DNA from: a virus
Length of the DNA stretch: 64,000 nt
Strand: one strand, 5' to 3'
IMG/VR virus record: IMGVR_UViG_3300045988_174371
Span: 192,001-256,000 of that record
Shown here: in pieces, positions 13,220-54,345 of the stretch
Numbering within the stretch: the stretch's first letter is position 1
Layout: each line of letters starts with the position of its first letter
Notes under the pieces: model-generated
The model's input: the letters and a program-made list of their open reading frames with translations, nothing else
Told to the model about the DNA's origin: nothing
Database searches by the model: none
Translations under genes and position numbers: made by a program

Positions 13220-13230
13220 TTAGAAGGGAG

Positions 13231-16075: not shown

Positions 16076-16135
16076 GGTATTTCTCCAAAAGTAATGTAAG
16101 CGTTAGCATTGTCCCTGTATATATATCAGAGATTA

Positions 16136-17362: not shown

Positions 17363-19953
17363 TAGGGGGTGCCTTCCTTTGGTGTGCTTTGGTCTTTGCG
17401 GGTTTGGACGCTTTCAGAGATGACTCCGCTCATGTTTCGCGGCTGGAATTTGACGGGCGGTAGTTGCTCTGATGCCGGTTTAGCGGGTTGGGTTAGTCGC
17501 GGCTTTTTGGGTGTTTGCGGGGGTGTTCCTTTCGGAGCTTGAACGATTTTAGGTTTCTTCACCTTGTTCATAGCGCCTGCGGGGGTACTTGGGCGAGGTG
17601 GTGCCACCGGGGGCGTTACGGGAACTGCTACCTGCGGAGCTACCGGGGGCTTGCTCTTCGGTGCTTGAGCCTTGCTTACAGTGGGTTTGGTTCGCGCTGT
17701 GGTCGGCTTGCTCTCCCTACGCTTAGGCGTTGTGGTACCCTCTTGGGTCTGTGCCTTAACGCGGGGCTTTGGGTAGCGTTTCGGGGTGGTTGTTGTGGTG
17801 GGCGGGGTGACGGGTTCAGATGGTACGCGGGGGAGCTTGGTGAGTACCTGTTCGGGGAGGATGATGTGGGTGAGCGTACCGTCCATCCTTTCGCGTATTT
17901 CCTTGGTGATGGGGTCAGTGTAGGGGGTTTTGCGGATTATCATGCCTTCGGTGTAGAAGGAGCCCTTGTCTGGGTTTGGGCGGCGGAGGTTGATGAGCTG
18001 TTCCTCAGACACGCGGGGCACGATAGCCTTTTCGGAGGACTTGTAGTAGCGTCGGTTGTCGTCCCACTGGAGGAGGTTCTTCCAGATAACACGCTCTCGC
18101 TTTGAGTCCACCTTGTAGCGCCTGATTTCTTTGGTTCCAACGAGGGAGACGATTCGCTTTGCGGTTTCGCCGCCCTTCATGCCACCGAGCACTACTAGGG
18201 TATCTGCGTTTACGAGGAGGCTGTTCACTGCCGCAGGGTCGTTTTTCTCGTAGAGCTGTTCAAGGTTCTGCTGTCCAAGAGAGATGCCGACGTTAGATGA
18301 GCGCGCTTTTTCGAGTAGACCTGCGATGCTGGTTAGCGGGATGGTCTGAAACTCGTCAAAGAATATTTGGATGACGTTGAGTTTCTGGGTGTCGTCGCGG
18401 CGGCGGTGGGATGACATGCTTGTTAGGAGGCTTGCGAGCATTTTGCCGAAGCCGGTACTGACTTCCACTTCGGAGTCCGCGTTGAAGTCGAGCAGGACAA
18501 TGGATGGCTTCGCGCCGGGTGCGACGATTTCGTCAAAGTTGATGTATGGCTCTCCATTCTGGGGCAGACCTAGCCAGCGTCCGTATGCTGAATTAAGCAT
18601 GATGCTGACGTTTCCTCGGGGAGTCTCCCAGGAGTTCTTGATGTTGCCGGATGCACCTTCTAGGATGCGGCGGCGGAGGTCTGCGCCGGTTTTATTGCCT
18701 TCGGGAAGGTGGTTGAGTATGGCTTCCGGGTGCATGAGAGCGCCGCAGAATCGACGGAACTCACCGTTATGCCAAGGGACACCTGCTTGTTCCAGTTCGT
18801 CTGCGATGAGTGCGTATTCTGCGGGGTTACTGCGTTCTTTGCGTTTCATGTACACTTCAAGCTCATCTAGTGAGTTGAGGAGTATTTGGAGGGTTGCCCA
18901 AACGTCGTTCTTATATTTCTGAGCGTCGTCTTGGTACTTCTGGAAGCCGATTGCGATGTCCAGCTTCTCGGAAGGCTTCAACCCTGCGAAGGGGTCTAGG
19001 AATGCTGGGCCATGTGGATTGTAGGCGTTGTCGTATTCGCCGGTTTCGGGGTTACCTTGGGTGAAGTGGTAGAAGTTAATGTCTTCTTCGGCGGCGTAGT
19101 TCGCAAGTTTTCGGGCAAGCGCGAGGTCTGCCTTCATGTTCACTAGGATGCTGGTAATGCCTAGCTTTGCGTTGGCGCGGATTTCGCTTTCGGTGGTGGC
19201 GGTCTTACCGCTACCTGGGGAGCCGACTTTGATGACGTGGCGGGGAATTTCGGGGACGGTAAACCATACGCCTTCGCCTGACTCTTCGTTAATACCGTAG
19301 GCTACACCGGGGGACATGTCAGAGCGTTCGCCGGGTAGGATGAAGTTAGCGCCGGAGACGATTTGAGCTTCGAGCTTGTCGCGCTTGCGGCGTTGGAATG
19401 GGGTTAGGCGGTATTTGAACTTCTTCTCGCTCATCCAGAGTGAGTCGTTGTATTTAATCTCTTCGTTGTGGTCGTAGTCGTATTGGATTCTTACGGCTAG
19501 GAGCCAGCCTAGGAGCGACCCGAGGATGATGCCGCCTATGGTGAATGGCGCGCTGAATGAGCCCACCAGGTCGAAGATACCTGAGGGGCTGAGAAGGTAG
19601 TTGCCGGGGTTCTTGGTGAAGGCTGAGAAGGCGGCTGAGAACTTTTGAGGGATGTTCAGGATGAACCATAGTGCCAGCCCGACAAGGGCTGTTCCTCCCA
19701 TATAGAGTCCCACCTCGGATGCCTGCATCATCTTTTTGCGGGTGAGGTAGTAGTATGACCAGCTCACAATGATGATTACAGCGAACAGGGCGGGGCTACA
19801 GAGCACGAGTGCAACCAAGATGAGCGCCCATTTGGTGAGGGTGTATAGCAGACCTGAGATGAGGTCGCCGCCGCTGGAGCTATTTGAGGGGGGTGAGGTG
19901 TCGTTAGGGACTTCGTTACCTTCGCGCTGGTAGTTCAACGCTTCCTGGTTCAT
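17362..19953 (-). CDS. type IV coupling protein (VirD4/TraG/TraD family) with Pro-rich C-terminal tail
   Basis: N-terminal TM helices. Walker A KVGSPGSGKTATT. Walker B and TraG-D_C-like block VIQIFFDEFQTIPLTSIAGLLEKARSSNVGISLGQQNLEQLYE...ETAKRIVSLVGT. The last ~170 aa are P/T/K/Q-rich. Confidence 0.8.
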   Translation of the reverse strand: MNQEALNYQREGNEVPNDTSPPSNSSSGGDLISGLLYTLTKWALILVALVLCSPALFAVIIIVSWSYYYLTRKKMMQASEVGLYMGGTALVGLALWFILNIPQKFSAAFSAFTKNPGNYLLSPSGIFDLVGSFSAPFTIGGIILGSLLGWLLAVRIQYDYDHNEEIKYNDSLWMSEKKFKYRLTPFQRRKRDKLEAQIVSGANFILPGERSDMSPGVAYGINEESGEGVWFTVPEIPRHVIKVGSPGSGKTATTESEIRANAKLGITSILVNMKADLALARKLANYAAEEDINFYHFTQGNPETGEYDNAYNPHGPAFLDPFAGLKPSEKLDIAIGFQKYQDDAQKYKNDVWATLQILLNSLDELEVYMKRKERSNPAEYALIADELEQAGVPWHNGEFRRFCGALMHPEAILNHLPEGNKTGADLRRRILEGASGNIKNSWETPRGNVSIMLNSAYGRWLGLPQNGEPYINFDEIVAPGAKPSIVLLDFNADSEVEVSTGFGKMLASLLTSMSSHRRRDDTQKLNVIQIFFDEFQTIPLTSIAGLLEKARSSNVGISLGQQNLEQLYEKNDPAAVNSLLVNADTLVVLGGMKGGETAKRIVSLVGTKEIRRYKVDSKRERVIWKNLLQWDDNRRYYKSSEKAIVPRVSEEQLINLRRPNPDKGSFYTEGMIIRKTPYTDPITKEIRERMDGTLTHIILPEQVLTKLPRVPSEPVTPPTTTTTPKRYPKPRVKAQTQEGTTTPKRRESKPTTARTKPTVSKAQAPKSKPPVAPQVAVPVTPPVAPPRPSTPAGAMNKVKKPKIVQAPKGTPPQTPKKPRLTQPAKPASEQLPPVKFQPRNMSGVISESVQTRKDQSTPKEGTP

Positions 19954-23715: not shown

Positions 23716-24069
23716 TTACTGCTCGCTGGATTCGCTGATTGCCACCTTGAGCACGTCGGGGATGAAACCTGAGAAGCAGATTTCGTTCTCGTCGCTTTCA
23801 TGCTGGCTCACTCCGGGGAGGCTGAGGTAGCGTTCGGGGTGTTCCGTGCGGATGGTCACGATAGGTGCCTGCATGATGTTCGGGTAGCGGCTCTTGATGT
23901 ATTCCAGCTTCTCGGGCTGTTCGTCTACCTTGTAGTTGTCGTAGGTGATGCCTGCGCCGTCTAGTACTCGTGCAGTCTGCTTGCACTGGATGCATTTGTT
24001 CTTGCTGTAGACGGTAATCGTCGGAGTAGCCATCGGGTTTTCTCTCCCTGGTTGTAGTTGGTGGGACAT
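23716..24069 (-). CDS. nrdH: NrdH/glutaredoxin-like redoxin with C-terminal extension
   Basis: ITVYSKNKCIQCKQTARVLDGAGITYDNYKVDEQPEKLEYIKS...QAPIV is a thioredoxin-fold pattern with a CxxC (CIQC). An alternative start at MATPTITVY is possible. Confidence 0.6.
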   Translation of the reverse strand: MSHQLQPGRENPMATPTITVYSKNKCIQCKQTARVLDGAGITYDNYKVDEQPEKLEYIKSRYPNIMQAPIVTIRTEHPERYLSLPGVSQHESDENEICFSGFIPDVLKVAISESSEQ

Positions 24070-24205
24070 TCATATTCTACGTGTTCCGCCTTGGGTTTCA
24101 CAAGGCGGTTAGGTGGGGCGTAAGTATTTTTCTTCTAGCCCCAGTATGTCATAGCGGTTTCATTGTGGTTCTAAGGGGTGTTTGGGTGGGTCTCTGGTGT
24201 GCTCT

Positions 24206-24327
24206 GTGGCTATTTTGTGGGGAGAGTGGCTATTCGTGGTGCCTTAGGGACTTTTCGGGGTTATATGGATGGTTTTTCGGTAGTGGTTTTTTGGTAGGTT
24301 TTTGGGGTTTGGGTGGTTTTTCGGTAG
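24206..24327 (+). repeat. iteron-like short direct repeats in a C-depleted intergenic tract
   Basis: GTGGCTATT at 24206 and 24226 (20-bp spacing). TGGTTTTTCGGTAG at 24270 and 24314 (perfect), plus the one-mismatch copy TGGTTTTTTGGTAG at 24284. Confidence 0.55.
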
Positions 24328-24540
24328 CTGAGGGTAGGTGTGGGTGGCGTGTTGCGTGGCGTGTTTGCGGGGGTCGGGGTGTGTTGTGGGGTGGTTCTAC
24401 TATTGATTAGTGATAAGACTTATCCGGGGGTGGTGTTTTTGAGGCTGTTTAGGGCTTTGCGATGGTCGGCTTTGATGATTTGCGCTCTGCCGCTGTGGGG
24501 TTAGTTGATGCTAGGCGGAGCCGTTGGTCTGCTGACGTTT

Positions 24541-24569
24541 TTAAAAATAAAGGCGCAAGGGGGTATAAT
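24541..24569 (+). promoter_or_regulatory. candidate sigma-70-type promoter for the Rep-like gene
   Basis: TTAAAA (24541-24546), a 17-nt spacer, then TATAAT (24564-24569). This would give a ~165-nt leader. GGAGG at 24725-24729 precedes the GTG at 24737. Confidence 0.35.
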
Positions 24570-24736
24570 GGTGGTTGAGTTTTTGGGGCGACCGTCGGTA
24601 TCCTGTAGGTGAGGAAAAGCTGATGGTGAGTGAAAATGGTTTTGCCGTCCTATTGGTGGTGTGCTAGACTGTTCCCAATCACATGTTATGAAGTAATCTG
24701 TTTGTTTTAAGTACCTCGGAGAAAGGAGGGTCACTC

Positions 24737-27283
24737 GTGGCTATGTCAGCAGTACGTGATGAAGACGCGGTTATGGTTCCGGTGGAGCCTGAGTCCGCGT
24801 CTGTTTTTGTGCCTGTAAACTCTGCCAAGGCGTTCACGGGTGACTCACTGTATCTGCGTGCCCGCCGTGAGGCTGTCCTTGCTCATGCTGAGAATAGGCG
24901 TGAGCAGGGTGCTGGTTATAGCCCGTACAGTGTCGTGGACTCTGACGGGTGCCTACTTCCTGAGAACGTTTCTGCTGAAGATGCTTTTGGAATGTATGTT
25001 GAGCGTGAGGCGTGGGTTCTGCCGCTTGCTTATGTGCATGGCGGTTTGCCGGTGTCTGCGCGTTCTGTTTCGGCTGGCTCTGCGTTTAATGAGCAGGGCG
25101 TGTGGGAGCGTTCTTCGTTGGCGCGTGTCGTTCAGCATGTGCCCTCTCCTGTTCTTGGGCTGAGTGGCGTTGAGTTGCTGGAGATGCCTTCGGGTGTGAT
25201 GGCGCGTCGTGCTTTGGCGTTTATTGCTTCACGTGTTCTGGAGACTGGTGCACGTGAGTTTGTTGTGCCTTCTCAGCCGCGTGCTTTGGCGCGTGTTGCT
25301 GGTGTTCCGGCGCTTTCTGCTGACGGGTATCGCCGGTTTGCTGAGGTGTTCCGTATGTGCCTTGGATTGAGGACTGCTGTTTATGACCGTGCGGCTGATG
25401 GTGGGCGTGGGGAGCTTCTTCATGCGTTCAGTGTTGGCGCGGATGTCTCTGACTCTTCGATGGGTATCATGTACAGCTTGGAGGGTAACGACTCTGGGTT
25501 CGCTGTGGTACGTGTTTCGGATGAGTTCTTTGATTACGTGAGCGGTAGCAATGTTGTGGCTATCCCTGCGTCTATGTGGGGTAGCCGGGTTGTGCGTTCT
25601 TCTGCTGTGGCGTTGGATGTTTTGGCGCTAGTTTTGGCGCGAGCTTCTGCCATGCGTGGCTCTTCTAAGGGCGGTAAGGCTTGGGTTGCTTGGTCGCATC
25701 TGGCGCGTCAGTTCGCTGTGTTCTCTTCCTCTGTACACAAGATGCATAGTGTGTACCGTAACGCGGTGAATGCTGTGCGTTCGCTGTTCGTACTGGAAGG
25801 CTCTGAGGACGTTGTTTCTCTTGTTGGTGGTAAGGGTAAGCGTGGTTTCTCTGGTTTCATGATTCAGGCGTACCGTTCTGCCCTGAAAGTTCTGCGCCCT
25901 CACGCCGTGAAGGTGGGCGATACGCTCTCTAAGCAGGTGCGTGGCGATGTTCAGAGGGAGACTTTGAATGAGTCTGCCGCTAAGGGTGAGCAGGTGCTTA
26001 TCCCTATCCGTGCACCCCGCAAGGGTAACATTTACCGTGCTGTAGACCTTGACCTGCTCTCTACCAAGATGAGCGGTAAGCTGGGCATTTACTTGCCTGC
26101 AATTAGCGAAGAATGGGAGCGTATTGTTGATACTGTTATCGACAGGTACGCCGCTTCCGCGCGCAACGGCAACCTCAAGAAGGTGAACAGCTGGCAGGCG
26201 TATGTTGAAGCGTCTATTAAGAACCAGCCCGCCCTCATGGACACCCCGAAGGAAGCGTCCACCCCTGTACGCCCCTCTCGCGCAATCCAGACCCCGAAGG
26301 TAACCGAAGACACTACCACTACCGAAAAGGCTGTCCAGGAGCCGCATGTAGCCGCTGACGGTCTACCGCGCCGCAACAGCGAGCAGACCCCGAAGACTTC
26401 CGCCGCTAAGCGTAAGGACAGCAACTTCGGTGCACCCTCACCCGTCTACATGTCCGAAGCGTTGGTGAAGAACTCCACCGTGAACACTTTCGACCTTCTC
26501 GATGAGAACTTCCTCAAGCAGTACATGAACGAAGACTGCATCATCACCCTTGACGTGGACACCCCCGAGTACTACGCATACTCTGACGCGCTACAGGCAG
26601 GAGCCGTGCCCGTAAATAACTACGAGCAGTGGAAGAAGGGCGTAAAGTTCCCCCCTGTCCGCGTGAAGCTCCCCTCCGGCGGCTACACCTACCTGAACGC
26701 CGGTAGCCGCTACACCAAGGGCGACGAATACTACTGCCGCGTCCTCCTCACCGAAGACTTCAGCAAGGACATCAAACGCACTATCTCCAACATCCGTGGA
26801 GACCGCCCTGTCACCCCCACCGAAGTTCCCATCCCCCCCGCGCCCGCCCCGGTTGCCCCTGTAGCGACTCCTGCACCCGTAACTCAGGTAGCAGAAACCA
26901 TTCCTCCGCGCCCTGAGTCGAAAAAGGAAGAGTCTGCTCCGGTATCTGAGCCTGCCGCACCCAAGAAGCGGAAGATTTGCTCCAACATGCCTAAGCATGT
27001 CGCTGAATCCCTCGCACCCTGGGACAAGGTGGACGCACACTACACCTACGTAGACGCGGAAGAAACCCTCGACGGCTACCTTGCGAACTTCAACGCTGAC
27101 CCGCTAGAGGCTGAAGTCATCAATGAGGCATCCCTGCCGCCTGTGGCTAACGAGGAGGAAGCAGAAGCTCGCGCCGCTATTCTGAAGTGGATTAACAACT
27201 CGAAGGACAGGAAGCCCCTACTGGATAGCATTATGAACCCCGCTCCTGAGCCTGACGACGAGTACCCCATCCTCAAGTACTAG
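24737..27283 (+). CDS. candidate plasmid-type replication initiator (RepA/TrfA-like winged-helix N-terminal half) with long Pro-rich C-terminal half
   Basis: Pattern similarity only: GVMARRALAFIASRVLETGAREFVVPSQPRALARVAGVPALSADGYRRFAEVFRMCLGLRTAVYD, then SAVALDVLALVLARAS...KAWVAWSHLARQFAVFSSS...YRNAVNAVRSL. Sits immediately downstream of the iteron-like tract. GTG start with a GGAGG SD. Confidence 0.4.
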   Translation: MAMSAVRDEDAVMVPVEPESASVFVPVNSAKAFTGDSLYLRARREAVLAHAENRREQGAGYSPYSVVDSDGCLLPENVSAEDAFGMYVEREAWVLPLAYVHGGLPVSARSVSAGSAFNEQGVWERSSLARVVQHVPSPVLGLSGVELLEMPSGVMARRALAFIASRVLETGAREFVVPSQPRALARVAGVPALSADGYRRFAEVFRMCLGLRTAVYDRAADGGRGELLHAFSVGADVSDSSMGIMYSLEGNDSGFAVVRVSDEFFDYVSGSNVVAIPASMWGSRVVRSSAVALDVLALVLARASAMRGSSKGGKAWVAWSHLARQFAVFSSSVHKMHSVYRNAVNAVRSLFVLEGSEDVVSLVGGKGKRGFSGFMIQAYRSALKVLRPHAVKVGDTLSKQVRGDVQRETLNESAAKGEQVLIPIRAPRKGNIYRAVDLDLLSTKMSGKLGIYLPAISEEWERIVDTVIDRYAASARNGNLKKVNSWQAYVEASIKNQPALMDTPKEASTPVRPSRAIQTPKVTEDTTTTEKAVQEPHVAADGLPRRNSEQTPKTSAAKRKDSNFGAPSPVYMSEALVKNSTVNTFDLLDENFLKQYMNEDCIITLDVDTPEYYAYSDALQAGAVPVNNYEQWKKGVKFPPVRVKLPSGGYTYLNAGSRYTKGDEYYCRVLLTEDFSKDIKRTISNIRGDRPVTPTEVPIPPAPAPVAPVATPAPVTQVAETIPPRPESKKEESAPVSEPAAPKKRKICSNMPKHVAESLAPWDKVDAHYTYVDAEETLDGYLANFNADPLEAEVINEASLPPVANEEEAEARAAILKWINNSKDRKPLLDSIMNPAPEPDDEYPILKY

Positions 27284-27292
27284 GCAGAGGCA

Positions 27293-27337
27293 CAGAAAAC
27301 CCCACCCACGCTTTCTATACGTGGGTGGGGTTTTCTG
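27293..27337 (+). terminator. intrinsic terminator (18-bp stem plus T-tract)
   Basis: CAGAAAACCCCACCCACG-9 nt-CGTGGGTGGGGTTTTCTG followed by TTG. Begins 10 nt after the stop at 27283. Confidence 0.75.
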
Positions 27338-27382
27338 TTGAGCCACGTACTGAAGGTATGCTCAGCTCAGGTTGGAGAAACA

Positions 27383-27421
27383 CTTACGCCCCCAAACCTT
27401 AGGAAGGCTTGAGGGCGTAAG
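27383..27421 (-). terminator. candidate terminator downstream of the rpf-like gene
   Basis: CTTACGCCC-21 nt-GGGCGTAAG. Lies ~80 nt after the stop at 27499. Confidence 0.3.
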
Positions 27422-27498
27422 CTGTGAGAAGGCGGGGCACTCAACCCCTACCCAAACAATAGTTAAGCTATTGTCAGCTGTGTAATTATTATTCTACA

Positions 27499-28281
27499 CT
27501 AGCTTCCCGGAATGGTCAAGACCTGACCCGGAAAAATAAGATTCACATCGTAAATCACATCCACATTAGCGTCCGCAATAGCCTGATAGCCGCCTGCAAC
27601 ACCCAAACGGCTTGCAATGAGCGATAGCGTATCACCAGCAACAACCTGGTACGTGGAAGAAGCCGCAACCGGAGCCTTCACAGGGGCAACGGCAGGAGCC
27701 GGAGCCTCAGTAGCAACCGGGGCGACCGGAGCAGACTCAACAGCCGCAGTAGAAGCCGCATCTGCCGAAACAGCAGGAGCCTCAACAACAGGGGTAACTG
27801 GAGTAGCTACAGCAGGAGCCGCCGGAACGGTGGCAGGAGCCGGAGCTACCGGAGTCTGCACAGTGCCCTGAGGAGCAACTACCGTAGAAGTAGTAGCCGC
27901 CGGAGCAGACTGAACTGCACCAGAGTTAGAGTAGGTGGGGGTTGCCGCGCCAGACAAACCGTACTTGGCAGTACAAGCGGGCCATGCGCCCCAACCCTGC
28001 AAAGCTAGAAGACGCTCACCAGCTTCAATCTGAGCCTCCTTGGAAGCGGTGTGCGGAGAACCGCTCATACCTACACCATTCCAAGACTGCTGAGTGAACT
28101 GCAAACCGCCATAGAAACCGTTACCAGTATTGATAGACCAGTTACCACCCGACTCACACTGAGCGAGCTTTTCCCACGTAGCAAGGTCAGCGGCATTAGC
28201 CGAAGGAACCGCAAGTGCCCCAACGGAAAGACCACCAAGTGCAAGAGCTACAGCGGTACGACGAATGGAAGTGTTCTTCAT
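27499..28281 (-). CDS. rpf: resuscitation-promoting-factor (Rpf) transglycosylase-like domain protein with C-terminal LysM
   Basis: Signal peptide. Rpf core WEKLAQCESGGNWSINTGNGFYGGLQFTQQSWNGVG...EAQIEAGERLLALQGWGAWPAC. An Ala/Pro/Val-rich linker. LysM YQVVAGDTLSLIASRLGV...NLIFPGQVLTIPG. Confidence 0.85.
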   Translation of the reverse strand: MKNTSIRRTAVALALGGLSVGALAVPSANAADLATWEKLAQCESGGNWSINTGNGFYGGLQFTQQSWNGVGMSGSPHTASKEAQIEAGERLLALQGWGAWPACTAKYGLSGAATPTYSNSGAVQSAPAATTSTVVAPQGTVQTPVAPAPATVPAAPAVATPVTPVVEAPAVSADAASTAAVESAPVAPVATEAPAPAVAPVKAPVAASSTYQVVAGDTLSLIASRLGVAGGYQAIADANVDVIYDVNLIFPGQVLTIPGS

Positions 28282-38502: not shown

Positions 38503-38661
38503 TTACGCGGCGACAGTAGCAGGGTAGTCACTATCACCAAGCCATCTATCGATAAACTCCGGCGAAGCAAAGAAGCCCGCAGTATCATAAAGCTTGCCGT
38601 TAATGTAGATAAACCCCGCAGAGCTAGAAGATTCTGCGGTAACGTCGTCAATATGGCACAT
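38503..38661 (-). CDS. unannotated 52-codon ORF, paralog of the C-terminal tail of the FtsK-like protein at 42990..43976
   Basis: Own translation: MCHIDDVTAESSSSAGFIYINGKLYDTAGFFASPEFIDRWLGDSDYPATVAA. GGAGG lies 7 nt upstream of the ATG. Matches GMVYLNGKLYDFQGFFAAPEFIDNWLS of the 328-aa protein. Too short for the supplied track. Confidence 0.5.
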   Translation of the reverse strand: MCHIDDVTAESSSSAGFIYINGKLYDTAGFFASPEFIDRWLGDSDYPATVAA

Positions 38662-42896: not shown

Positions 42897-42950
42897 AATT
42901 GGTGAGGCACCCCATCAAGAAACTATTCTTGACAGGGTGCCTCACCAATT
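42897..42950. terminator. bidirectional terminator (16-bp perfect stem) between convergent recX and FtsK-like genes
   Basis: AATTGGTGAGGCACCC-22 nt-GGGTGCCTCACCAATT. Confidence 0.65.
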
Positions 42951-42989: not shown

Positions 42990-43976
42990 CTACTCCATAC
43001 CGCGAGAACCATGCTCACTAATGTACTCCATGTCCTCGCCCCATTCAGACATGACAACCTCATCTTCATCAATCTTCTCACCGAAGACAAGGGTCTGAGC
43101 GTTACCCTCAGCGTCAGTTTCGCCAGTGTGAACAATCGTCTGTCCGTCCACGACTTCCTGCGTAACATTGTGAGCATCTGCGTCCTGGGCGTTCTGGCTC
43201 AGCCAGTTATCGATAAACTCCGGCGCGGCAAAGAAGCCCTGGAAGTCATACAGCTTACCGTTAAGGTAAACCATACCTCTACCCTTAACGTTCGGGTCAA
43301 TCATCGTACCAGCACCAGACTCCAACGTCATAGCACTAGCCGCTGAAGTCAAGACACCCGCCGCAATACGACACATGAAGTTCGAACGAATTTCACCAGA
43401 GATAATCTTCGCATCCGGTCTCTGCATAGCCAGAACCAGGTGAACACCAGCCGCACGACCAAGACGCGCAATAGAGCCGATAAGAGTAAGCGCTTCACCC
43501 TTAAGAAGGTCATCTGCCTTACCCTCATCGGTCTTAACGCCAGTAGGTGAAAGAAGCTCAGCTGCCTCATCGACCATCACCATCACACGCTGACGGGAAC
43601 CGCCATCCTCAAGCTCTGGCAAGTCAATGTAGTTCTGGACACCATGACGCTCCATCAACTCATAACGTTGCATCATGGTCTGTTGCGCAAACCTAAGAAC
43701 CGTCAGCGCATCTTCCAGCGTGGTAGCGATACCCAACACCACGGGGACGTAAGGGCGGTAGACCGAAAGCTCAACCTTCTTGAGGTCAATACCCAAGAAG
43801 CGCCATGCATCCGGGCGCATAATACACTGGAAAACGAAGTTCCTCTGAAGGACGCTGTTGTGCGTAACAATAGACACACCATCGTCGCCACCAGAGCGAT
43901 ACAGCTTCTTCTTAGAACCTACGACAAAGCATCTTGACGGTACTGGCTCAACTTCTTCAATACTGGCTATCTGCAT
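42990..43976 (-). CDS. FtsK/SpoIIIE-family ATPase-domain protein with degenerate Walker A
   Basis: Retains FLGIDLKKVELSVY, LRFAQQTMMQRYELM, Walker B VMVMVDEAAELL and IARLGRAAGVHLVLAMQRPDAKIISGEIRSNFMCRIA. Where GxxGxGKS is expected it reads GVSIVTHNSVLQ. A GGAGG SD precedes the ATG, so the N-terminus is not truncated by annotation. Confidence 0.65.
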   Translation of the reverse strand: MQIASIEEVEPVPSRCFVVGSKKKLYRSGGDDGVSIVTHNSVLQRNFVFQCIMRPDAWRFLGIDLKKVELSVYRPYVPVVLGIATTLEDALTVLRFAQQTMMQRYELMERHGVQNYIDLPELEDGGSRQRVMVMVDEAAELLSPTGVKTDEGKADDLLKGEALTLIGSIARLGRAAGVHLVLAMQRPDAKIISGEIRSNFMCRIAAGVLTSAASAMTLESGAGTMIDPNVKGRGMVYLNGKLYDFQGFFAAPEFIDNWLSQNAQDADAHNVTQEVVDGQTIVHTGETDAEGNAQTLVFGEKIDEDEVVMSEWGEDMEYISEHGSRGME

Positions 43977-44107
43977 AAAACCTCCGCCAAGCTCAGGCGC
44001 GCAATAATCGTTTAATCAATCCATCCCACACCCCGAAACTCCCAAACGTTTCACGACGCAAAAGCCAGCAATATAGCCAAGCCAGAGGAAGAAAAGGTAA
44101 ACAAAAT

Positions 44108-44142
44108 GGGTGTGGCGACGGTAAAACACCGCCACCACACCC
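44108..44142 (-). terminator. candidate terminator
   Basis: GGGTGTGGCGACGGT-5 nt-ACCGCCACCACACCC (13 of 15 paired), ~50 nt after the stop at 44192. Confidence 0.4.
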
Positions 44143-44191
44143 ATAGCAAAGGTGCATAGCTAAACAGCTAGATTACCTAACGGTAAACCCG

Positions 44192-44755
44192 CTAGGAGTC
44201 AAAGATAAGTTCCACTCCCGCCGCTGTGCCAAGACGGGTGATAGTGCCAATAATGTGAACAGCTTCCGCCTCTGGTGAACCTTCTTCAAAGTCGGACTCC
44301 ACAACAGGGGCTACATCCCAAAGAGCTCGCGGCAACACTACCCTAAGTCGAGTGTGTTTGCCATTCGGAATAGCTGACGCTGGGAGGTCGCTGTACCTAG
44401 CTACAGCGTTAGATTCCATTAGCGTGTAGCGCTGGCAGATTGTCTCTTCTACGAAGCGAAGCAAGTCAAGCTCACTCTCAAGCACGCGGAACTTGCGTTC
44501 AGATGCAGGCATGTAAGGAAAGTCCTGCTCTGAAGGCAGGAGATGAGTATACCCCCAGCCGTTGTCAAGGTCATTCCCTAGAAAACGTCGCCACGCTTCC
44601 CTATTAACTAGCAAATAGAAATTGAGCGGCGGTTGCCCGCCAGTAGGATACGGGCGCGCTTCAAGGTGAATGTTGCGACTCGCGCAATTATCTTCCATAT
44701 AAGATGAAGTCATACCGTACTCCTTAAAAAGTATCTTCGTCAGATTGGGCATCAC
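44192..44755 (-). CDS. truncated FtsK-like paralog (187 aa) lacking Walker A and Walker B
   Basis: LDLLRFVEETICQRYTLMESNAVARYSDLP...EAEAVHIIGTITRLGTAAGVELIF aligns by eye with the 328-aa protein. RLRVVLP replaces the VDE Walker B. Confidence 0.5.
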   Translation of the reverse strand: MMPNLTKILFKEYGMTSSYMEDNCASRNIHLEARPYPTGGQPPLNFYLLVNREAWRRFLGNDLDNGWGYTHLLPSEQDFPYMPASERKFRVLESELDLLRFVEETICQRYTLMESNAVARYSDLPASAIPNGKHTRLRVVLPRALWDVAPVVESDFEEGSPEAEAVHIIGTITRLGTAAGVELIFDS

Positions 44756-45275
44756 AAAACCTACAGCGCGAAGGCACCACCGGCAGGATGAGCTCTATTT
44801 CCGCCGGTGCACCGAGGCGCGCAATGGAGCCAATGATGCGGATAGCTTCTGCCTCATTCGAGCCTTCCTCAACCTCTTCGACGTTAGTATTATTTATCGC
44901 CTGCGCGGTCGAAGGCGACAGCTCCAACCTAAACCGAGTGTTCTTGCCATCTGGAAGAGCCGACACCGGAATGTCCTTGTATTCGTGGACGGAGAACTCC
45001 TCCATCATCTTGTAACGCTCCATCATCGTCTGTAGCGCAAACCTAAGCACCTTAAGGTCATCCTCAGACACCTCAAAACGTTCACGCTTAGATGCAGGCG
45101 CATAAGAAGCCATCTCAACCTTTTTAAGGTCAATGCCCAAGAACTCCCAGTCTGCCGGGCTCATGATGTGCTGGTAGACGAAGTTCTTATCCAGGATATT
45201 GTTGCCCGTTACCGTAGGCACAGATTCACTGGTAGTGCAGTCGCCACAGTTAGAAGGGCTGGAAGATGAAGTCAT
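44724..45275 (-). CDS. truncated FtsK-like paralog (183 aa) lacking Walker A and Walker B
   Basis: NFVYQHIMSPADWEFLGIDLKKVEMASY...LKVLRFALQTMMERYKMMEEF...EAEAIRIIGSIARLGAPAEIELIL. Overlaps the next paralog by 32 nt. Confidence 0.5.
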   Translation of the reverse strand: MTSSSSPSNCGDCTTSESVPTVTGNNILDKNFVYQHIMSPADWEFLGIDLKKVEMASYAPASKRERFEVSEDDLKVLRFALQTMMERYKMMEEFSVHEYKDIPVSALPDGKNTRFRLELSPSTAQAINNTNVEEVEEGSNEAEAIRIIGSIARLGAPAEIELILPVVPSRCRFCDAQSDEDTF

Positions 45276-48823: not shown

Positions 48824-51535
48824 TTAAGCGACTCGGGTATGACCCCAATCGAAAGAACCCTCACCAAACATTCTCACCAAAGCGCTCTTAGTAGCGTTCA
48901 CAAAAGGAACATGGATAGGAACCTCCACATAGCCCATCATGTCCGCCAAATCGTCCATAGAAGCGCTAGAAGCTTCTAGCGGGGCAACTGGAACGTCAGC
49001 CCATGAACGCCCCTCAGAAGGGGCTTCAGTCGCCGCATAAGCGAACTTACTCGGCAAATCGACACCATACCCCAGTTTGGACGAGTCATACACCGCCACT
49101 TTAAGCGGCACCCTCCGCGTCGTGTCAGCCACAGCCAACCCGCCAACAGCAGACTGAACCATGCCCACAGCTTCCTCCAAGGAGCCACCGCGTGAGATGT
49201 CTACTCGAAGCCTAGCGCACATCTCACCTGATGCGGAAAGCGGAACCTGCCGAGTGTTCAAGATGTTCAGGTATGGTGGACGGTAGCTAACCTCCCCCTC
49301 ATCATTAACAATCTTCCGGGCGGGCGTGTAATTCACATGCAGGGAATACACCTGATAAGGCTCTAGTTTAGGGCTAGACCTAACCGACGCAGAGGTTACC
49401 CTGGCAACATCTGCCGCATCAGCATGAACACCTTGCAGAAAGGCGTTCTTCACATTCTGCTCAGAGACCCACAAATCCTCGCGCGTAAGCAAACTGTTAG
49501 ACACATACCCAGCGATAGTACCAGTACCGTCATCTAGCGTTGCCAGAACCTTGCGTCCAAACTTCTTATGCGTCTTATCTTCTAGTGCTACAATCGCCGC
49601 CATAACAACAGCACCCTTTACAGGGTGCTCAGAGGACAATAGCTCACCAACAGTACAAGCACGCATCACCGGAACACGCGGAGGAATTGAAGCCATCGGG
49701 TGACCAGTCATATACTGACCAGCTACCTCAGCCTCATACCTCAGCCTCTCAACCAAGGGATAATCCTCCACAGAGAGAGAAACGTCATCCGGTAGCGACT
49801 CCCCCGTAACCAGCTCAGCATCAGCCGACAGCGCGACCCCCGAATCTTTAGCCGCCTTCAATGCCTGACGTTTAAGCTTAGCCCGCTCTTTACGTAGCAA
49901 ATCCAAGTAGCCAGGGATAGCTTCAAGAACCGCCTTGCGGGAGACACCAAACACATCAAATGCGCCCGCCTTCGCCAAGCCTTCATAGGTAGTCTTAGTG
50001 ACCTTACCGGCATTAAACGTGCGAACAACAAAGTCCTTCACGCCGCGATAAAGTCCGCCACGCTCACGCTCAGACACGATAACCTCAGCATCCTTCGACC
50101 CTACACCCTTGAGCATAGAGAACCCGAAAGCGAGATTACCCTCACCGTTCAACCCAATGTCAGCACTGGAGAAATTCACGTCAGGAACATCCAAACGCAC
50201 CCCGCGCCGCCGAGCGTCCTCAATAAGCTCCTGAACCTTGTCTCGACCTGCTGACCCCATCGTAACCTTACGGGCAATAGCCGCCGCATAGAACTCCGCA
50301 GGATAATGCGCCTTCATATACAAGGCAAGATAAGCCATCGCCGCATACGCATCCGAGTGCGATTTATTGAAGCCATACTCTGCAAAGCCAACAATCCTAT
50401 CCCACAACGTCTGCATCGCCTCACGGCTGAAGCCATTAGATGCGCCGCCTGAGATGAAACGCTCAGCATATGCCAGCATCAAGTCGTGCTTCTTCTTGCC
50501 AATCGCTCGACGCAAATCATCGCCCTCTTGGGGAGTCATCCCAGCAATCAGAGAAGCAATAGACATCACCTGCTCCTGATAGACCAGAAGACCGCTCGTA
50601 TCTGCAAGAATGTCATCAAGAGCCGAACCTACGAAGTCAGGGTGAATTGGCTTCACTTCCTCACGACCAGCTCGACGCTCCACATACTGAATATGACTAC
50701 CAGCACTCATAGGCCCTGGACGATACAGCGCCGTAATAGCCGAAATGTCACCCAGCGTGCTAGGGGCGAACTTCGTGAAAAGGTCAGCAACAGCAGAATT
50801 ACCTAGCTGGAAGATACCAACCGTATCACCCTTACCCAGCAGACGGAACGTCTCAGCATCATCAAAGCGGCTTTCTCGAACCATCTTCCTGAAGTCAGGG
50901 ACATCTTTCCCCGCCTGGACTGCTAGACGTGCCGCATCACACAGAATATCAACAGTATCCAGCCCCAAAAAGTCGAACTTAATAAGCCCCATGCTTTCGC
51001 ACGCACCATACTCAAACCCCGCAACAACAGACCCATCCTTCGCCGTATCAACGGGAACATGATGATGCAGAGGGCTTGACGAGATAAGCAATCCGCAAGC
51101 ATGAACACCACGACCACGGATGCGACCTTCAAGGGCTTTCGCGCAAGCGATTGGCTTCTCCCAGAACGGCGTGTCTACAGCCTCACGGAAACGTGCAGAG
51201 CCAGCATACTCTTCACTATCAGGGTCATAGACCTTAGCGAAAGTAATTCCGAGGCTATCCGGCAAGAGACTTGTCACGTAGTTCGCCTGAGCGGGAGGCA
51301 CCCCGTAGACACGCGCACCGTCTTTAATCGACGCGCGCGTCTTGAGCATCTGATTAGTTGGCAACCTTGCAGAATGGTCAGCCCCATATAGCTGAGCAAC
51401 ATGCTCAAACGCGGCATCTCTATGCGCAGTATGAAAGTCAGTGTCAATATCCGGTGGAGAACCAGGGTGTACAACCTTATTGCTCGTGACGCGAACGTAC
51501 ACCTTGCCCTCAACAACTCTTTTCTCTACACCCAC
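48824..51535 (-). CDS. dnaE: DNA polymerase III alpha subunit, C-terminal fragment (palm/fingers/beta-binding/OB), separate ORF
   Basis: After a 24-26-aa head (MGVEKRVVEGKVYVRVTSNKVVHPGS) it starts with PPDIDTDF. Also HACGLLIS, GLIKFDFLGLDTV, FNKSHSDAYAAMAYLALYMKAHYP and an OB-like KGAVVMAAIVALEDK. GTG start 2 nt after the dnaX stop, with GGAGG 7 nt upstream. Confidence 0.85.
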   Translation of the reverse strand: MGVEKRVVEGKVYVRVTSNKVVHPGSPPDIDTDFHTAHRDAAFEHVAQLYGADHSARLPTNQMLKTRASIKDGARVYGVPPAQANYVTSLLPDSLGITFAKVYDPDSEEYAGSARFREAVDTPFWEKPIACAKALEGRIRGRGVHACGLLISSSPLHHHVPVDTAKDGSVVAGFEYGACESMGLIKFDFLGLDTVDILCDAARLAVQAGKDVPDFRKMVRESRFDDAETFRLLGKGDTVGIFQLGNSAVADLFTKFAPSTLGDISAITALYRPGPMSAGSHIQYVERRAGREEVKPIHPDFVGSALDDILADTSGLLVYQEQVMSIASLIAGMTPQEGDDLRRAIGKKKHDLMLAYAERFISGGASNGFSREAMQTLWDRIVGFAEYGFNKSHSDAYAAMAYLALYMKAHYPAEFYAAAIARKVTMGSAGRDKVQELIEDARRRGVRLDVPDVNFSSADIGLNGEGNLAFGFSMLKGVGSKDAEVIVSERERGGLYRGVKDFVVRTFNAGKVTKTTYEGLAKAGAFDVFGVSRKAVLEAIPGYLDLLRKERAKLKRQALKAAKDSGVALSADAELVTGESLPDDVSLSVEDYPLVERLRYEAEVAGQYMTGHPMASIPPRVPVMRACTVGELLSSEHPVKGAVVMAAIVALEDKTHKKFGRKVLATLDDGTGTIAGYVSNSLLTREDLWVSEQNVKNAFLQGVHADAADVARVTSASVRSSPKLEPYQVYSLHVNYTPARKIVNDEGEVSYRPPYLNILNTRQVPLSASGEMCARLRVDISRGGSLEEAVGMVQSAVGGLAVADTTRRVPLKVAVYDSSKLGYGVDLPSKFAYAATEAPSEGRSWADVPVAPLEASSASMDDLADMMGYVEVPIHVPFVNATKSALVRMFGEGSFDWGHTRVA

Positions 51536-51537
51536 AA

Positions 51538-52827
51538 TTAGCCTCCCTGAGGTGCCTTAGTCTGACTCTGCTTAGCCGTAATGACCGAGCGCATACGCAT
51601 AGTCACATCAATCCACAGAATCTCAAAGATAATGTTCTCGTCACTGGTATTCCAGAATCCCTGGAAAGACCTCTCCAGAGTCTTTAGGAGCTTCATCGCC
51701 ATATCTGGCGGCAAATGACGGCGCATCTCCTGCAATCCAATGTCCTGTTTAGGCAAGTCAGCAAACGGCAAATCCGCGTTGCTGACCGTTGCCCCGTAAA
51801 CCCAGGTGATGTAATGGCGAAGCTGACCCATAACCTCCTCCGTGCCATCACGCAAGGATGCCTCATGCTCCTTCGCGTCCTCCAGAGCCTCGTGGATACG
51901 AATAATATCGCCGTAAATTAGGCACCTCAACAGGCTAGTAGCCGTCGATTCGGTACCACTGTACATGTCTGGGTTGCGCAGGTACTCTTCAAGCTTCTTG
52001 AGCGCGCCACGTGCAGAGCCCTTTGCCGCCCTAGCGCACCATGCCGCGCCCGAGTCAGAGATTTCTTTATGCTCGCGCGCCGCAATGTCACGAACATACT
52101 TCTCCAAAGTAGCTACAGGGATATTCTTAAGCTTATACTCCTGAACTCGCGTAAGAATCTCATCCTTGATGCCGTTCATCTTCGTAGTGCAGAAAAAGAT
52201 GGGCACATAGTCGGCGCTATCCTTATTCTCCAGGTACGGCAAGAAAGCGTTCCATGCAGGCTCAGACAGCGCATGACACTCATCAATGATGATGAACGGA
52301 GCTTTCTGCATCTGCTTAACTGAACCGTTACTGACGATACGTCTAGTATCTTCCACACCACTCTTAAGTGCGGCAACGAAATGGTTCATACCACCATTGG
52401 CGGAGGCATCGAAAGCAAGGCACGCATCACAGGTCAAGCAAGGGTCTGCCGAGTCAGCAGGGCGACCCGTGCAGTTCATAGCCTTAGTGAAGACCTTCAC
52501 AATACTAGACTTACCCACGCCAGGCTTACCGCGAAGCAAACGCCCCTGAACGCGGCGATTCTTAATGATGTCCTCCTTCAGCTGGGCAATAATCTCTTCC
52601 TGCCCAACAAAGTCACCCCATACTCGCGGCTGGTACTTACGGTGGAACTCAACGTATTCCTCATCGCCCTCCTGAGGCTCTTCTGCCTCATCGGTAGGTT
52701 CTAGTACCTCAGCATCAGAAACCGTCTCGTCGCTAAAGGGCTCAATCGCGCCACCAGGGTCGCCCACAGACTCCAAAGGCAACGTCTCTTCCCCTAGGGG
52801 CAAAGTGTCATGCATCTCTTCAGTCAT
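51538..52827 (-). CDS. dnaX: DNA polymerase III gamma/tau (clamp-loader ATPase) DnaX-like
   Basis: HRKYQPRVWGDFVGQEEI, Walker A LRGKPGVGKSSIV, zinc module CLTCDAC, Walker B FIIIDECHALS, sensor FFCTTKMNGIKDEILTRV. Acidic N-terminal extension. Confidence 0.8.
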   Translation of the reverse strand: MTEEMHDTLPLGEETLPLESVGDPGGAIEPFSDETVSDAEVLEPTDEAEEPQEGDEEYVEFHRKYQPRVWGDFVGQEEIIAQLKEDIIKNRRVQGRLLRGKPGVGKSSIVKVFTKAMNCTGRPADSADPCLTCDACLAFDASANGGMNHFVAALKSGVEDTRRIVSNGSVKQMQKAPFIIIDECHALSEPAWNAFLPYLENKDSADYVPIFFCTTKMNGIKDEILTRVQEYKLKNIPVATLEKYVRDIAAREHKEISDSGAAWCARAAKGSARGALKKLEEYLRNPDMYSGTESTATSLLRCLIYGDIIRIHEALEDAKEHEASLRDGTEEVMGQLRHYITWVYGATVSNADLPFADLPKQDIGLQEMRRHLPPDMAMKLLKTLERSFQGFWNTSDENIIFEILWIDVTMRMRSVITAKQSQTKAPQGG

Positions 52828-52842
52828 AACCTATCTTCCTCA

Positions 52843-54345
52843 CTAATCCAAAGTCTCACTAATAACGTCACCTAGTGTCGTACCGGGCTCTAGGAGAACC
52901 CAATCGCCGGGAAGTACCTGGTGAACATACTTCTCCAACTCTGCGCCGCCATCCGTCAGTACTTTAACTTTCTCGGAGACAGGCAAAACGGCAGAGCTTT
53001 CATCTCCAAACCTCAGCTCTGCCTGGTCTACACGACCTGCTGAGATGAAACGTTCAAAGAACAAGCCGAACTCGATAGGGTCAATGTCAGTAATGCCCAG
53101 CAGATAAGCGACGATAGAGCCTCCAGCAGAGCCACGAGCGATACCTACCGCACTCATCACAATCTCATCAGCCGCATTACGGACACTGAACGATTCACGG
53201 AACCAATTCACGTATTCAGCCACGATAACCATGTAGCCACAATAGTTTGCTGAGGCTAGGGCATCAAGCTCTTTCTTTGCACGCTCCAACACCAGAGAGT
53301 ACTTATCCTTGTCATGGTGAAACTGCTCATAAGCGAGCGACGTAACCGTCCTACGCAAGTAGCTTTCCTCAGTCTCGTCCGCCGGAATGAGTGGCACAGG
53401 ACGCAAATCAGACCTGTACTCAAACAGCGAGAATCCTTGCACCTTGCCCGCAAGCTCAGCTGTATTAGTTACTGCACCTGGGTACTCCGTATCCGGGAAA
53501 AGACGCATCATCTCGTCTGCGCTCTTGAGGTAGTACTGGTCGCCGTCAAAGCAAAACCTGCGACCACCCTGTTCCTTCGGCAAGTCATTCATTGTTGAGC
53601 CTGTACCGATAGCAAGCATCTCCTCATGGTGGGGTGCATCCTGAGGCAATGCATAATGGCAATCGTTAGTTGCCAGTAGGCGCAACCCCAAATCCTTAGC
53701 GAGTGCGACCTGCTTCACCAGCAGGGACCGCTCCAAATCTGAAGACATCGAATGGTTCATAACCTCTACGAAGACGTTCTCGACACCGTAAATGTCGATA
53801 AGAGTCTGCGCATAGGAATAAGCCTCAGCATCCTGCCCCAAACGGAAACGGGTAGAAATCTCACCAGAGGGACATCCAGTAGATACCACAATGCCCGACG
53901 AATATTCCCTCATCATCTCCAAATCGATACGGGGGTACCCGCCGCGCTTATGCTCAGGGGAAGCCGCCAACATCTGCAACGTAAACATATTACGCAGACC
54001 CTCATCATTGACAGCCCACATCGTCAAATGCAGATAGTTACCCCTGCCAGACACATCCCCAACAGCCCCAGGCGCACCGTAAAAAACGGGAGTCTTCACT
54101 TTAGCACCCTCAGGGTTAATCGGTGCGACGTAGAACTCACAACCTGGTACGGGGGTGACACCAGCCTTTTGGCAACCCGTCACAAGTTCATAGATGCCGT
54201 GCATGTTGCCGTGGTCAGTGATACCCAGAGCAGTCTGACCTGCATCAACTGCACGCTGAATGTACTCGCTGACACTAGAGAAGCCGTCTAGCGTGGAGTA
54301 TGTTGAGTGCGTATGAAGGTTTACGAAAGATTCAGGGGAAACCAA
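52843..54345 (-). CDS. dnaE: DNA polymerase III alpha subunit, N-terminal fragment (PHP domain and start of palm), separate ORF
   Basis: FVNLHTHSTYSTLDGFS, ITDHGNMHG ... IARGSAGGSIVAYLLGITDIDPIEFGLFFERFISAGR, then a ~62-aa non-DnaE tail ending at a TAG. Confidence 0.85.
   Translation of the reverse strand: MVSPESFVNLHTHSTYSTLDGFSSVSEYIQRAVDAGQTALGITDHGNMHGIYELVTGCQKAGVTPVPGCEFYVAPINPEGAKVKTPVFYGAPGAVGDVSGRGNYLHLTMWAVNDEGLRNMFTLQMLAASPEHKRGGYPRIDLEMMREYSSGIVVSTGCPSGEISTRFRLGQDAEAYSYAQTLIDIYGVENVFVEVMNHSMSSDLERSLLVKQVALAKDLGLRLLATNDCHYALPQDAPHHEEMLAIGTGSTMNDLPKEQGGRRFCFDGDQYYLKSADEMMRLFPDTEYPGAVTNTAELAGKVQGFSLFEYRSDLRPVPLIPADETEESYLRRTVTSLAYEQFHHDKDKYSLVLERAKKELDALASANYCGYMVIVAEYVNWFRESFSVRNAADEIVMSAVGIARGSAGGSIVAYLLGITDIDPIEFGLFFERFISAGRVDQAELRFGDESSAVLPVSEKVKVLTDGGAELEKYVHQVLPGDWVLLEPGTTLGDVISETLD

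Follow-up and report, generated by a model that had tools for sequence, protein, structure and literature searches.

An FtsK/TcpA-like ATPase gene probably divided within its Walker A motif by a fragmented class 3-type intein

Fractured genes whose products are joined by split inteins are an established phenomenon, e.g., gp41-1, NrdJ-1 and IMPDH-1 (Dassa et al., 2009, PMC2677866); the cyanobacterial split DnaE intein is a further example. The inteins of these fractured genes belong to class 1, i.e., they possess Cys1; they come in two, usually adjacent pieces with a recognisable homing-endonuclease open reading frame (ORF) in between (PMC2677866). Class 3 inteins are characterized by the absence of Cys at position 1, a Cys at block F:4 and a WCT triplet, the Trp of which (block B:12) deviates in 6.1% of cases; AceL NrdHF is the only reported naturally split member, and none of 1701 class 3 inteins in nr is split (Hoffmann et al., 2020, PMC7891396). 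Here we analyze a stretch of 64,000 nucleotides, the window, from the IMG/VR virus record IMGVR_UViG_3300045988_174371 (positions 192,001 to 256,000). It carries gene A with 328 amino acids (aa) and two shorter relatives, B and C. Most likely A represents the rear portion of a DNA-translocase ATPase of the FtsK/TcpA type with a membrane anchor. A fragmented class 3-type intein would break the gene of this ATPase inside the Walker A motif (GPTGSGK/S; a slash marks the break). The pieces would be a 395-aa N-piece, a middle piece termed ORF310, and A, with B and C as lineage-restricted truncated tandem copies. The P-loop is probably rebuilt by protein splicing.

The likeness to described systems is partial. 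Like the predicted intein of A, AceL NrdHF is naturally split, has no N-terminal nucleophile, possesses a block F cysteine, departs from the canonical WCT triplet and is of metagenomic origin. Yet its host is a ribonucleotide reductase instead of an FtsK-like ATPase, and it is a single reported locus in two pieces, whereas here 486 protein clusters match and possibly three pieces are involved. With the class 1 fractured genes and split DnaE the locus shares an essential enzyme gene broken at a conserved site, a C-terminal intein fragment (IntC) of about 36-40 residues which ends in His-Asn ahead of Ser or Cys, and halves on separate ORFs with an unrelated ORF between fragments. In contrast to those, the present intein appears to be class 3-type, its C-piece is 52.6 kb away, and the intervening ORF, ORF354, matches no known family. 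Atypical natural split inteins with a very short N-terminal fragment (IntN) are AceL-TerL and VidaL. These and synthetic three-piece inteins resemble our case in that a short N-terminal intein segment resides on the N-extein and the remainder is provided in trans. However, AceL-TerL and VidaL are two-piece and the three-piece examples were engineered, whereas here a natural three-piece intein possibly exists. Such a synthetic three-piece split intein splices, according to the account in PMC2677866 (Sun, Yang and Liu, 2004, J Biol Chem). A literature search yielded neither a natural three-piece split intein nor a paper on a split intein in an FtsK-like gene; two papers mention both subjects, but only incidentally. 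The case appears to be new: a large family of putative split class 3-type inteins in the P-loop of an FtsK-like ATPase, with relatives which are also split at a second site or after the first strand only.

A search in 5.8 billion proteins returned 486 relatives of A (counted as protein clusters), many of them on contigs of 200-680 kb. In collections of phage and plasmid records the relatives of A were no closer than 36% identity, and among species-representative genomes the element has no close relative. An alignment of 24 of the 486 relatives, A2, was used to determine conservation; protein starts were counted in 120 listed relatives. The features of gene A, all on the minus strand, are as follows.

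42990..43976, minus: gene A, 328 aa, putative IntC plus C-extein of a fractured FtsK/TcpA-like ATPase (Pfam, homologs, dN/dS, Foldseek).
43857..43976, minus: putative IntC, residues 1-40 (MQIASIEEVEPVPSRCFVVGSKKKLYRSGGDDGVSIVTHN), block F with Cys16 and block G with Thr38-His39-Asn40 (alignment to the intein end of relative P0122).
42993..43856, minus: C-extein, residues 41-328, a RecA-like core (41-260) and an acidic C-terminal tail; Ser41 would be the Walker A serine and first splice nucleophile (alignment to intein-free relatives, AlphaFold2).
43566..43586, minus: Walker B, VMVMVDE, residues 131-137 (D136 and E137 invariant in A2).
43413..43466, minus: RLGRAAGVHLVLAMQRPD, residues 171-188, FtsK signature and arginine-finger region (invariant columns in A2).
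42900..42947, minus: terminator-like hairpin with a 20-pair stem past A, between A and the convergent recX (stem count).

Gene A matches Pfam FtsK_SpoIIIE (PF01580) with 46.7 bits (cutoff 24, E 3.4e-12) and PHROG 1358 with E 2e-39; partial matches exist to FtsK, EccC, EssC and TraB models. Foldseek ranked TcpA of pCW3 first (6o1w, E 5e-16) and also matched the FtsK motor (E 9e-13), EccC and EssC. Sequence comparison likewise points to TcpA and FtsK at about 30% identity. Thus the profile threshold is passed, the RecA-like motor fold is found by Pfam, PHROG and Foldseek, and the fold is FtsK/TcpA/EccC-like as originally predicted, with no different fold assigned. In the AlphaFold2 model the core of residues 41-260 is confident (predicted local distance difference test, pLDDT, 83-94). 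Residues 1-38 are without secondary structure at pLDDT below 52, and a helix starts at residue 39. Walker B and the motif RLGRAAGVHLVLAMQRPDA (RLGRAAGVH..QRPDA), reported as retained in the original prediction, are indeed there and invariant across the family alignment; in A2 the invariant positions comprise R171-G173, R174, A175, G177, V178 and Q185-A189. The ratio of nonsynonymous to synonymous substitution rates (dN/dS) of A against orthologs 94% identical to it is 0.05.

The Walker A motif is a different matter. The original prediction stated that A, B and C had all lost the P-loop, and GxxGxGKS is in fact absent from all three ORFs as well as from all 24 relatives in A2. For A, however, "lost" is the wrong word: its GVSIVTHN/S reads as an intein end followed by the Walker A serine, the rest of the motif being encoded by another gene. 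To the motif GxxGxGK[ST] A itself, as encoded, contributes Ser41 alone. The A2 relatives have in common G-G-x-D-G-x-S-x-V-T-H-N-S-V-x-Q-R-N, in which Asn40, Ser41, Val42 and Gln44 are invariant; His39 and, further upstream, Cys16 are conserved in at least 90%. Of the 120 listed relatives, at least 113 have Met as first residue and then, mostly after 38-42 residues, [ST]HN/S. The block G:5 position is occupied by Thr in 66 and by Ser in 47 of the listed relatives; A has Thr38. The N-terminal pattern of the family, M-x-I-x-x-I-...-x-C-I-x-V-D-S-x-x-x-L-F-...-T-H-N/S, corresponds to intein blocks F and G ahead of a +1 nucleophile.

Intein-free contiguous relatives, retrieved by an exhaustive HMMER search, reveal what is interrupted. 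They read ...PH.L..G.TGSGK/SVLQRN... (e.g., P0128 and P0131), in general G.TG.GK/S[VTA].QR. At the position of Ser41 of A, P0128, P0253 and P0162 have GSGK/SVLQR, and homology of A to intein-free relatives begins only at residue 40. About 25 long relatives, e.g., P0122 (1335 aa) and P0123 (1433 aa), carry an insert of about 630 residues between GK and SVLQR. Residues 2-40 of A match the last 40 residues of the P0122 insert (KIVSVEETEPVPMRCISVDSEDRLFLVG...PTHN/SVLQRN; its end can be written EPVPMRCISVDS..PTHN/SVLQRN). This insert contains LAGLIDADG_3 and Hom_end domains, and its N-part is like an intein-containing radical-SAM protein. The full inserts differ in their first residue, which is never a nucleophile (A, M, L, I, Q, N, K, R or E); block B is HLW and block F has Cys. 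By sequence, and according to the criteria of PMC7891396, the full inserts carry the class 3 intein signature. Residues 1-40 of A are accordingly identified as the C-terminal fragment of a class 3-type intein, and Ser41 as the Walker A serine. A has what distinguishes a split-intein C-fragment, i.e., blocks F and G ending in His-Asn with Ser, Thr or Cys at +1, at the start of an own ORF; it also has the class 3 residues Cys at block F:4 (Cys16) and Thr at block G:5 (Thr38). The short intein models of Pfam and NCBIfam gave no match to the 50-residue N-terminus of A, as expected at such length.

These data bear on the original interpretation, i.e., that A, B and C are pseudo-ATPase subunits or regulators without nucleotide binding, similar to the degenerate domains of EssC/EccC. 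The absence of GxxGxGKS from all three ORFs agrees with it, as do the intactness of the ORFs, some purifying selection, and the presence of EccC and EssC among the fold matches. The D2/D3 domains of EssC/EccC belong to the same fold family as A, B and C and have motifs missing as in B and C. However, those domains are covalently linked, complete folds, whereas B and C are truncated and A is not degenerate. The motif of A is divided rather than lost, with Ser41 as the Walker A serine and GPTGSGK on a partner ORF of the same element (see below). Further, Walker B of A does not vary in the family, nor do its arginine-finger motifs, and degenerate domains usually lose such motifs. A complete fold with mutated motifs is not what A presents; it keeps all motifs except those encoded elsewhere. 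Applied to all three paralogs, the pseudo-subunit interpretation is thus extremely unlikely: it is refuted for A, to which the EssC/EccC likeness does not extend either, and could hold for B and C only.

The wider family shows that splitting is not a peculiarity of one gene. Further complete inteins are found at other sites in family members, with starts of K/AL...H.W and ends of ...LYCISVDSxxKQFL....THN/T. Some relatives (P0216, P0229, P0260, P0230; L308, L310) encode middle fragments, i.e., an IntC, the extein residues 41-148, and then the IntN of a second intein. The rest of the extein is on another contig, so that this ATPase is cut into at least three extein pieces. Such natural middle fragments indicate that the A family really uses split inteins. 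In P0177 and P0249 only the first strand of the intein is absent, and all of the remainder is fused to the C-extein. The split site is atypical in being near the N-terminus of the intein, and the present element has its first break at that same site. P0261-P0272, fragments which resemble cellular FtsK, have their class 3 intein at this Walker A position as well (...MPHVLIAGATGSGK/ALALDTPIPTPRGW...), which makes this insertion site common to cellular and mobile-element FtsK genes. In two relatives, L020 and L021 (contigs of 420 kb and 201 kb; 4380..6380), the PD-(D/E)XK/Cas4-like nuclease encoded beside the FtsK-like gene has a class 3-type intein of its own (DYKG/LALDTPIPTPYGW...HLWY...TQCIQVDS...TTHN/T).

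If A is a C-piece, where is its partner? A pattern search for G..G.GK without a subsequent Ser or Thr, together with profile hidden Markov models (HMMs) of N-extein and IntN, in six frames of the window identified no partner gene. As no Walker A with an intein start is present anywhere in the window, the partner has to be located outside. With the genes at the window's ends 10 kb more of sequence was gained per side, on contigs of 269-361 kb from human oral metagenomes. In the extension beyond window coordinate 1 the HMM of N-extein plus IntN matched an ORF which follows an SSB gene. A metagenome scan with this partial 395-aa ORF then recovered the gene in full from 10 independent assemblies. 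These fall into two clades, one 97-98% and the other 77-78% identical to the query.

Outside the window, some 8.6-9.8 kb past its coordinate 1 and at a distance of about 52.6 kb to A, same strand as A: N-piece, 395 aa (389 aa in the sister clade), candidate N-extein with intein start (HMM, hhalign).

The N-piece consists of transmembrane helices, a domain, and then ...PTPMVLIMGPTGSGK/AQAITDPIERTQFYVYIDGVKTIVENMPYDPDNP... up to the stop codon, with GPTGSGK/AQAITDPIE at the junction. Past GPTGSGK follow 53 residues, which consist of an Ala-first intein strand, AQAITDPIE, and a tail of 44 residues. Compared by hhalign with a profile of contiguous intein-bearing relatives (N-extein plus IntN), the 395-aa ORF scores 97.2% probability (E 4.5e-11), and the alignment passes through Walker A into the first nine intein residues. 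When placed on the contiguous intein-free P0253 and P0162, the 395-aa ORF covers the sequence up to ...GSGK and A continues from the very next residue. This exact abutting, together with the hhalign result, identifies the 395-aa ORF and A as two halves of one ATPase, divided between the lysine and the serine of Walker A. N-piece, A and both window-end genes are united with collinear spacing on a single contig (ERZ989713 k127_64826, 360,715 bp). As in other split inteins, a separate ORF thus has the N-extein up to the homologous junction and then block A; as in class 3 inteins, position 1 is no nucleophile, i.e., Ala follows GSGK.

The reconstructed protein is TcpA-like, with N-terminal transmembrane helices and one RecA-like motor. 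TcpA (Clostridium perfringens pCW3, PDB 6o1w-6o1z) and the FtsK motor (2ius, 6t8b) are the best sequence and fold matches of A. In contrast to it these are single polypeptides with an intact P-loop, and the reconstructed protein is without the FtsK gamma domain.

What the N-piece does not have is most of an intein N-lobe. It carries the first strand at most, which means that a classical two-piece split intein is not present. About 1 kb downstream of the N-piece, past the conserved ORF354 of 354 aa, is ORF310 (310 aa) which contains EVVTVGDLEKGDWILDDDNNIQPILHLFPIHTPARQFKVKLINGAVGSYGDTHLVEY. Its intein N-lobe part extends from VVTVGDLEKGD to GDTHL and is followed by an extension of about 200 residues. 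Against an intein profile it scores 95.2% probability (E 2.9e-8) over intein columns 66-122, i.e., from the second half of block A to block B; in pairwise comparisons with inteins z reaches 15.6. The same arrangement is seen in independent assemblies, so the layout of N-piece and ORF310 is no assembly artefact. Comparison of the two clades gives dN/dS values of 0.06 (N-piece), 0.15 (tail of the N-piece) and 0.10 each (HINT part and C-part of ORF310). All pieces are under purifying selection with dN/dS of 0.05-0.15.

Several steps of splicing can be proposed. The first strand on the N-piece, the N-lobe of ORF310 and the IntC of A would assemble into a HINT fold. Cys16 would then attack the Lys342-Ala343 bond of the N-piece, the class 3 route. 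Subsequently, the N-extein would be transferred to Ser41, and Asn40 would cyclise. The product would be a membrane-anchored ATPase of 630 residues with an intact GPTGSGKS which probably pumps DNA for the element. Trans-splicing, then, may need three pieces, and this element apparently has a three-piece intein. Only tentatively, with the balance tilted somewhat to the negative, do we extend this to a natural three-piece split intein in the strict sense. Walker A would then be rebuilt only when the N-extein with the first strand, a free-standing block B fragment, and the IntC with the C-extein meet, the ATPase would be conditional on co-expression of loci 52 kb apart, and the 486-cluster family on elements of 200-680 kb would be naturally split class 3.

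A number of observations weigh against the proposal of a spliced ATPase. Splicing itself is deduced from sequence. The 53-residue tail of the N-piece is devoid of His and without significant pairwise similarity to inteins past about nine residues, and it has no block B. Block B (GDTHL) resides instead on the separate ORF310, so the HINT domain is not completed from two fragments as in regular split inteins. There the block B His is kept and the Trp replaced, THLV (THLI in the sister clade) versus HLW in contiguous relatives; the class 3 Trp at block B:12 is therefore not present in ORF310. The conserved ORF354 between the first and second piece has no assigned role in the scheme. Finally, partner pieces were found only in this clade and in the 77%-identical sister clade; scans of collections and protein-database searches found none for the wider A family. 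In the protein database a 140-column profile (A3) matched only proteins of up to 245 aa, most of them pieces of cellular FtsK or DnaB that carry class 3 inteins, and a 363-residue profile (A5) had two matches, swamped by transmembrane words. IMG/VR scans with A3, A7 and A8 gave no matches on contigs bearing an A-family gene. Hand-made DNA patterns for the N-piece gave no partner among the matches listed; two of these were too strict (the N-piece has P-M-V-L, not P-H-x-L).

Could the ATPase be split without being spliced? Vestigial intein fragments might dock the N-piece and A non-covalently, or both proteins might act independently, and the P-loop would stay interrupted. The unusual fragmentation of the intein, the missing block B Trp and an N-piece tail which past about nine residues is not recognisably HINT fit such a view. 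Yet Cys16, His39, Asn40 and Ser41 are invariant or nearly so in relatives down to 43% identity, which is not required of a mere docking peptide. In addition, P-loop chemistry is well established: for Mg-ATP binding the Walker A Ser must directly follow the Lys. An unspliced ATPase is therefore improbable.

Even less probable is a second possibility, namely that ORF310 constitutes an entire IntN, has a short N-extein of its own and is the true partner of A. Splicing would then join a leader of about 45 residues to the C-extein, the product would be P-loop-less, and the 395-aa protein would work alone. ORF310 does hold most of the N-lobe including block B, it has a leader of about 49 residues, and 'YEIHKST' is located at the first-strand position. 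However, the leader evolves fast (dN 0.50 over 23 codons). The canonical first strand, A-x-x-[IL]-x-[DT]-P-I, is right after GSGK on the 395-aa ORF, and this ORF and A fit the two halves of contiguous proteins exactly. We regard this second possibility as very unlikely and retain the 395-aa ORF as the partner of A.

ORF354 (L297 5094..6158) overlaps the end of the N-piece and is 71% identical between the clades. It has no matches in Pfam, PHROGs or PDB. Its resemblance to an intein N-lobe ('THIP') and an FtsK 'IPGE...RIN.G' motif is faint and unsupported. A diverged FtsK C-part or a second IntN were considered and are not supported (hhalign probability 0.5%). Pairwise z is 0.2-2.9 against four of five inteins used, and 5.3 against the Lys-rich P0249.

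If the proposal of trans-splicing is correct, a P-loop dependent on the products of distant loci would constitute a built-in AND-gate on DNA translocation. For annotation, the 486 clusters matching A are of concern; those inspected would likely be taken as P-loop-less or 'hypothetical' FtsK-like proteins although they would be halves of an active enzyme. For intein biology, naturally split class 3 inteins were thought to be almost absent. Here they emerge as numerous and diverse, with Cys in block F and Thr in block G as in the canonical form; among them are two-site splits and apparently a three-polypeptide intein. Split inteins without N-terminal cysteine and with Ser at +1 are sought-after ligation tools in biotechnology.

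The short paralogs present a different picture. They and two associated features, all on the minus strand, are listed here.

44192..44713, minus (to 44755 if the start is GTG): short paralog B, 173 aa from ATG 44713 (187 aa from GTG 44755), a degenerate IntC stub joined to a copy of residues ~44-182 of A, without Walker A or B (alignment, DNA reading).
44724..45275, minus: short paralog C, 183 aa, a stub 'SNC...TVTGNN/I' (His to Gly, +1 Ser to Asn) plus a copy of A residues ~41-182, without Walker B (alignment).
44106..44144, minus: strong terminator-like hairpin with a T-run between B and A, 18-pair stem (stem count).
38503..38661, minus: 52-aa ORF, a copy of A residues 234-259 (GFIYINGKLYDTAGFFASPEFIDRWL, 73% identical; tblastn E 4e-9).

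The three ORFs are present on the minus strand at the positions given originally. Their homology, as originally predicted, is far beyond chance: B and C align to A at residues ~16-182 with 34% and 45% identity, respectively (tblastn E 6e-15 and 5e-30). Equally correct was the statement that both are without Walker B. They end just before QRP, i.e., the arginine-finger region is missing, and they represent truncated folds with about 60% of the ATPase core. The AlphaFold2 model of C is confident for residues ~70-165 only. The start of B most likely is ATG 44713, with AAGGAG 7 nucleotides upstream and an N-terminus MTSS... as in C. The original prediction let the genes overlap or abut. Since the stop codon of C is 10 nucleotides upstream of the ATG of B, B and C do abut with a 10-nucleotide spacer; there is no overlap, and B and A are separated by the hairpin. 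As B and C have no +1 nucleophile they cannot be spliced, and by their sequences they are not expected to bind ATP.

The distribution of the short copies is narrow. Two are present in the window and in an identical IMG/VR contig, one in relatives with an A 93-94% identical, and none at 83% identity or less. B is found only in the window and in L013; a single C-type copy is found in L001-L004 and L014. The stub decays stepwise: 'SNC...VITHN/T' is kept in L002 and L014, C has 'TVTGNN/I', and in B decay has progressed further. The shared MTS.. start, the shortened stub and the same C-terminal end (...RLG.AAGV.LIL) indicate that all short copies descend from one truncated copy. Where A orthologs are protein-identical (dN 0.001), the short copies differ by 11-23% (dN 0.06-0.14); in terms of dN they evolve 10-100 times faster than A. 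Their dN/dS is 0.18-0.48, about 0.3, with a 95% confidence interval (CI) below 1 in five of six comparisons; for B versus C it is 0.35 (CI 0.18-0.57), for C among relatives 0.18-0.29. The comparison of dN/dS among homologs, suggested with the original prediction, reports purifying selection on A and some on the short copies. The view that simple decay is less likely is borne out by dN/dS, which is about 0.05 in A and about 0.3 in the short copies; the majority of the CIs are below 1.

Are B and C nevertheless decaying pseudogene copies without function? They are confined to one shallow clade with a copy number of 0, 1 or 2, they have no catalytic motifs left, and their dN exceeds that of A 10-100 times. 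One copy is truncated by an insertion of an IS605-family TnpB gene, and no consequence of this is apparent. On the other hand, six of seven copies have no stop or frameshift although the copies in the window are only 41-56% identical in amino acids to those of relatives; dN/dS is 0.18-0.39 with an upper CI bound below 1 in five of six comparisons, and the MTS.. start and the Shine-Dalgarno sequence are conserved. We regard loss of function as a serious possibility, if slightly the weaker one. B and C may be by-products of recombination at a mobile intein-bearing site which are either kept under weak constraint or have taken on a function as small accessory or decoy proteins. A regulatory or decoy role is conceivable. 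The insertion mentioned, an IS605 OrfB/TnpB (Cas12f-like) gene, is located on a 357-kb relative (L004 4000..5271) just upstream of its single short paralog and removes the N-terminus of the latter. The 52-aa ORF is a fourth A-derived fragment; in relatives, called genes of 57-71 aa occupy the same place (L001 11318..11518).

The element encodes a number of genes reminiscent of type IV secretion systems. Their products include a VirD4/TrwB-like coupling protein of 863 aa with an intact GSPGSGKT P-loop, a weak TraC/VirB4-like protein of 502 aa, an M23 peptidase of 1158 aa and a protein with a lysozyme domain, as well as sortases and an adhesin with CshA repeats. These genes are located at 7780..19953 of the window (minus strand), and at L292 15473..18949 and L294 1..2745. 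The window further encodes a split DnaE, DnaG, LigA, RecA and RecX; no phage structural gene was seen in it. The 'viral' contig may actually represent a giant element similar to a conjugative plasmid, with an oral Gram-positive bacterium as its host. It is plausible that the putative spliced ATPase serves to transfer the DNA of this element or to segregate it.

At 48824..54345 of the window (minus strand) DnaE is encoded by two ORFs, one of 500 aa (PHP plus N-part) and one of 903 aa (the remainder), with a clamp-loader AAA+ gene in between. The break is at FERFISAGR / SPPDIDTDF; the N-part has a tail of 60 residues and the C-part a 25-residue leader, '...GKVYVRVTSNKVVHPG/S', which faintly resembles a degenerate intein end. 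The DnaE C-part of a relative (L012) gave a faint Intein_splicing match. Lastly, the GC skew changes sign sharply at window positions ~24000..28000, from +0.30 (24-26 kb) to -0.10 (26-28 kb). The coding strand changes at the same place, and an origin or terminus of replication may be located there.

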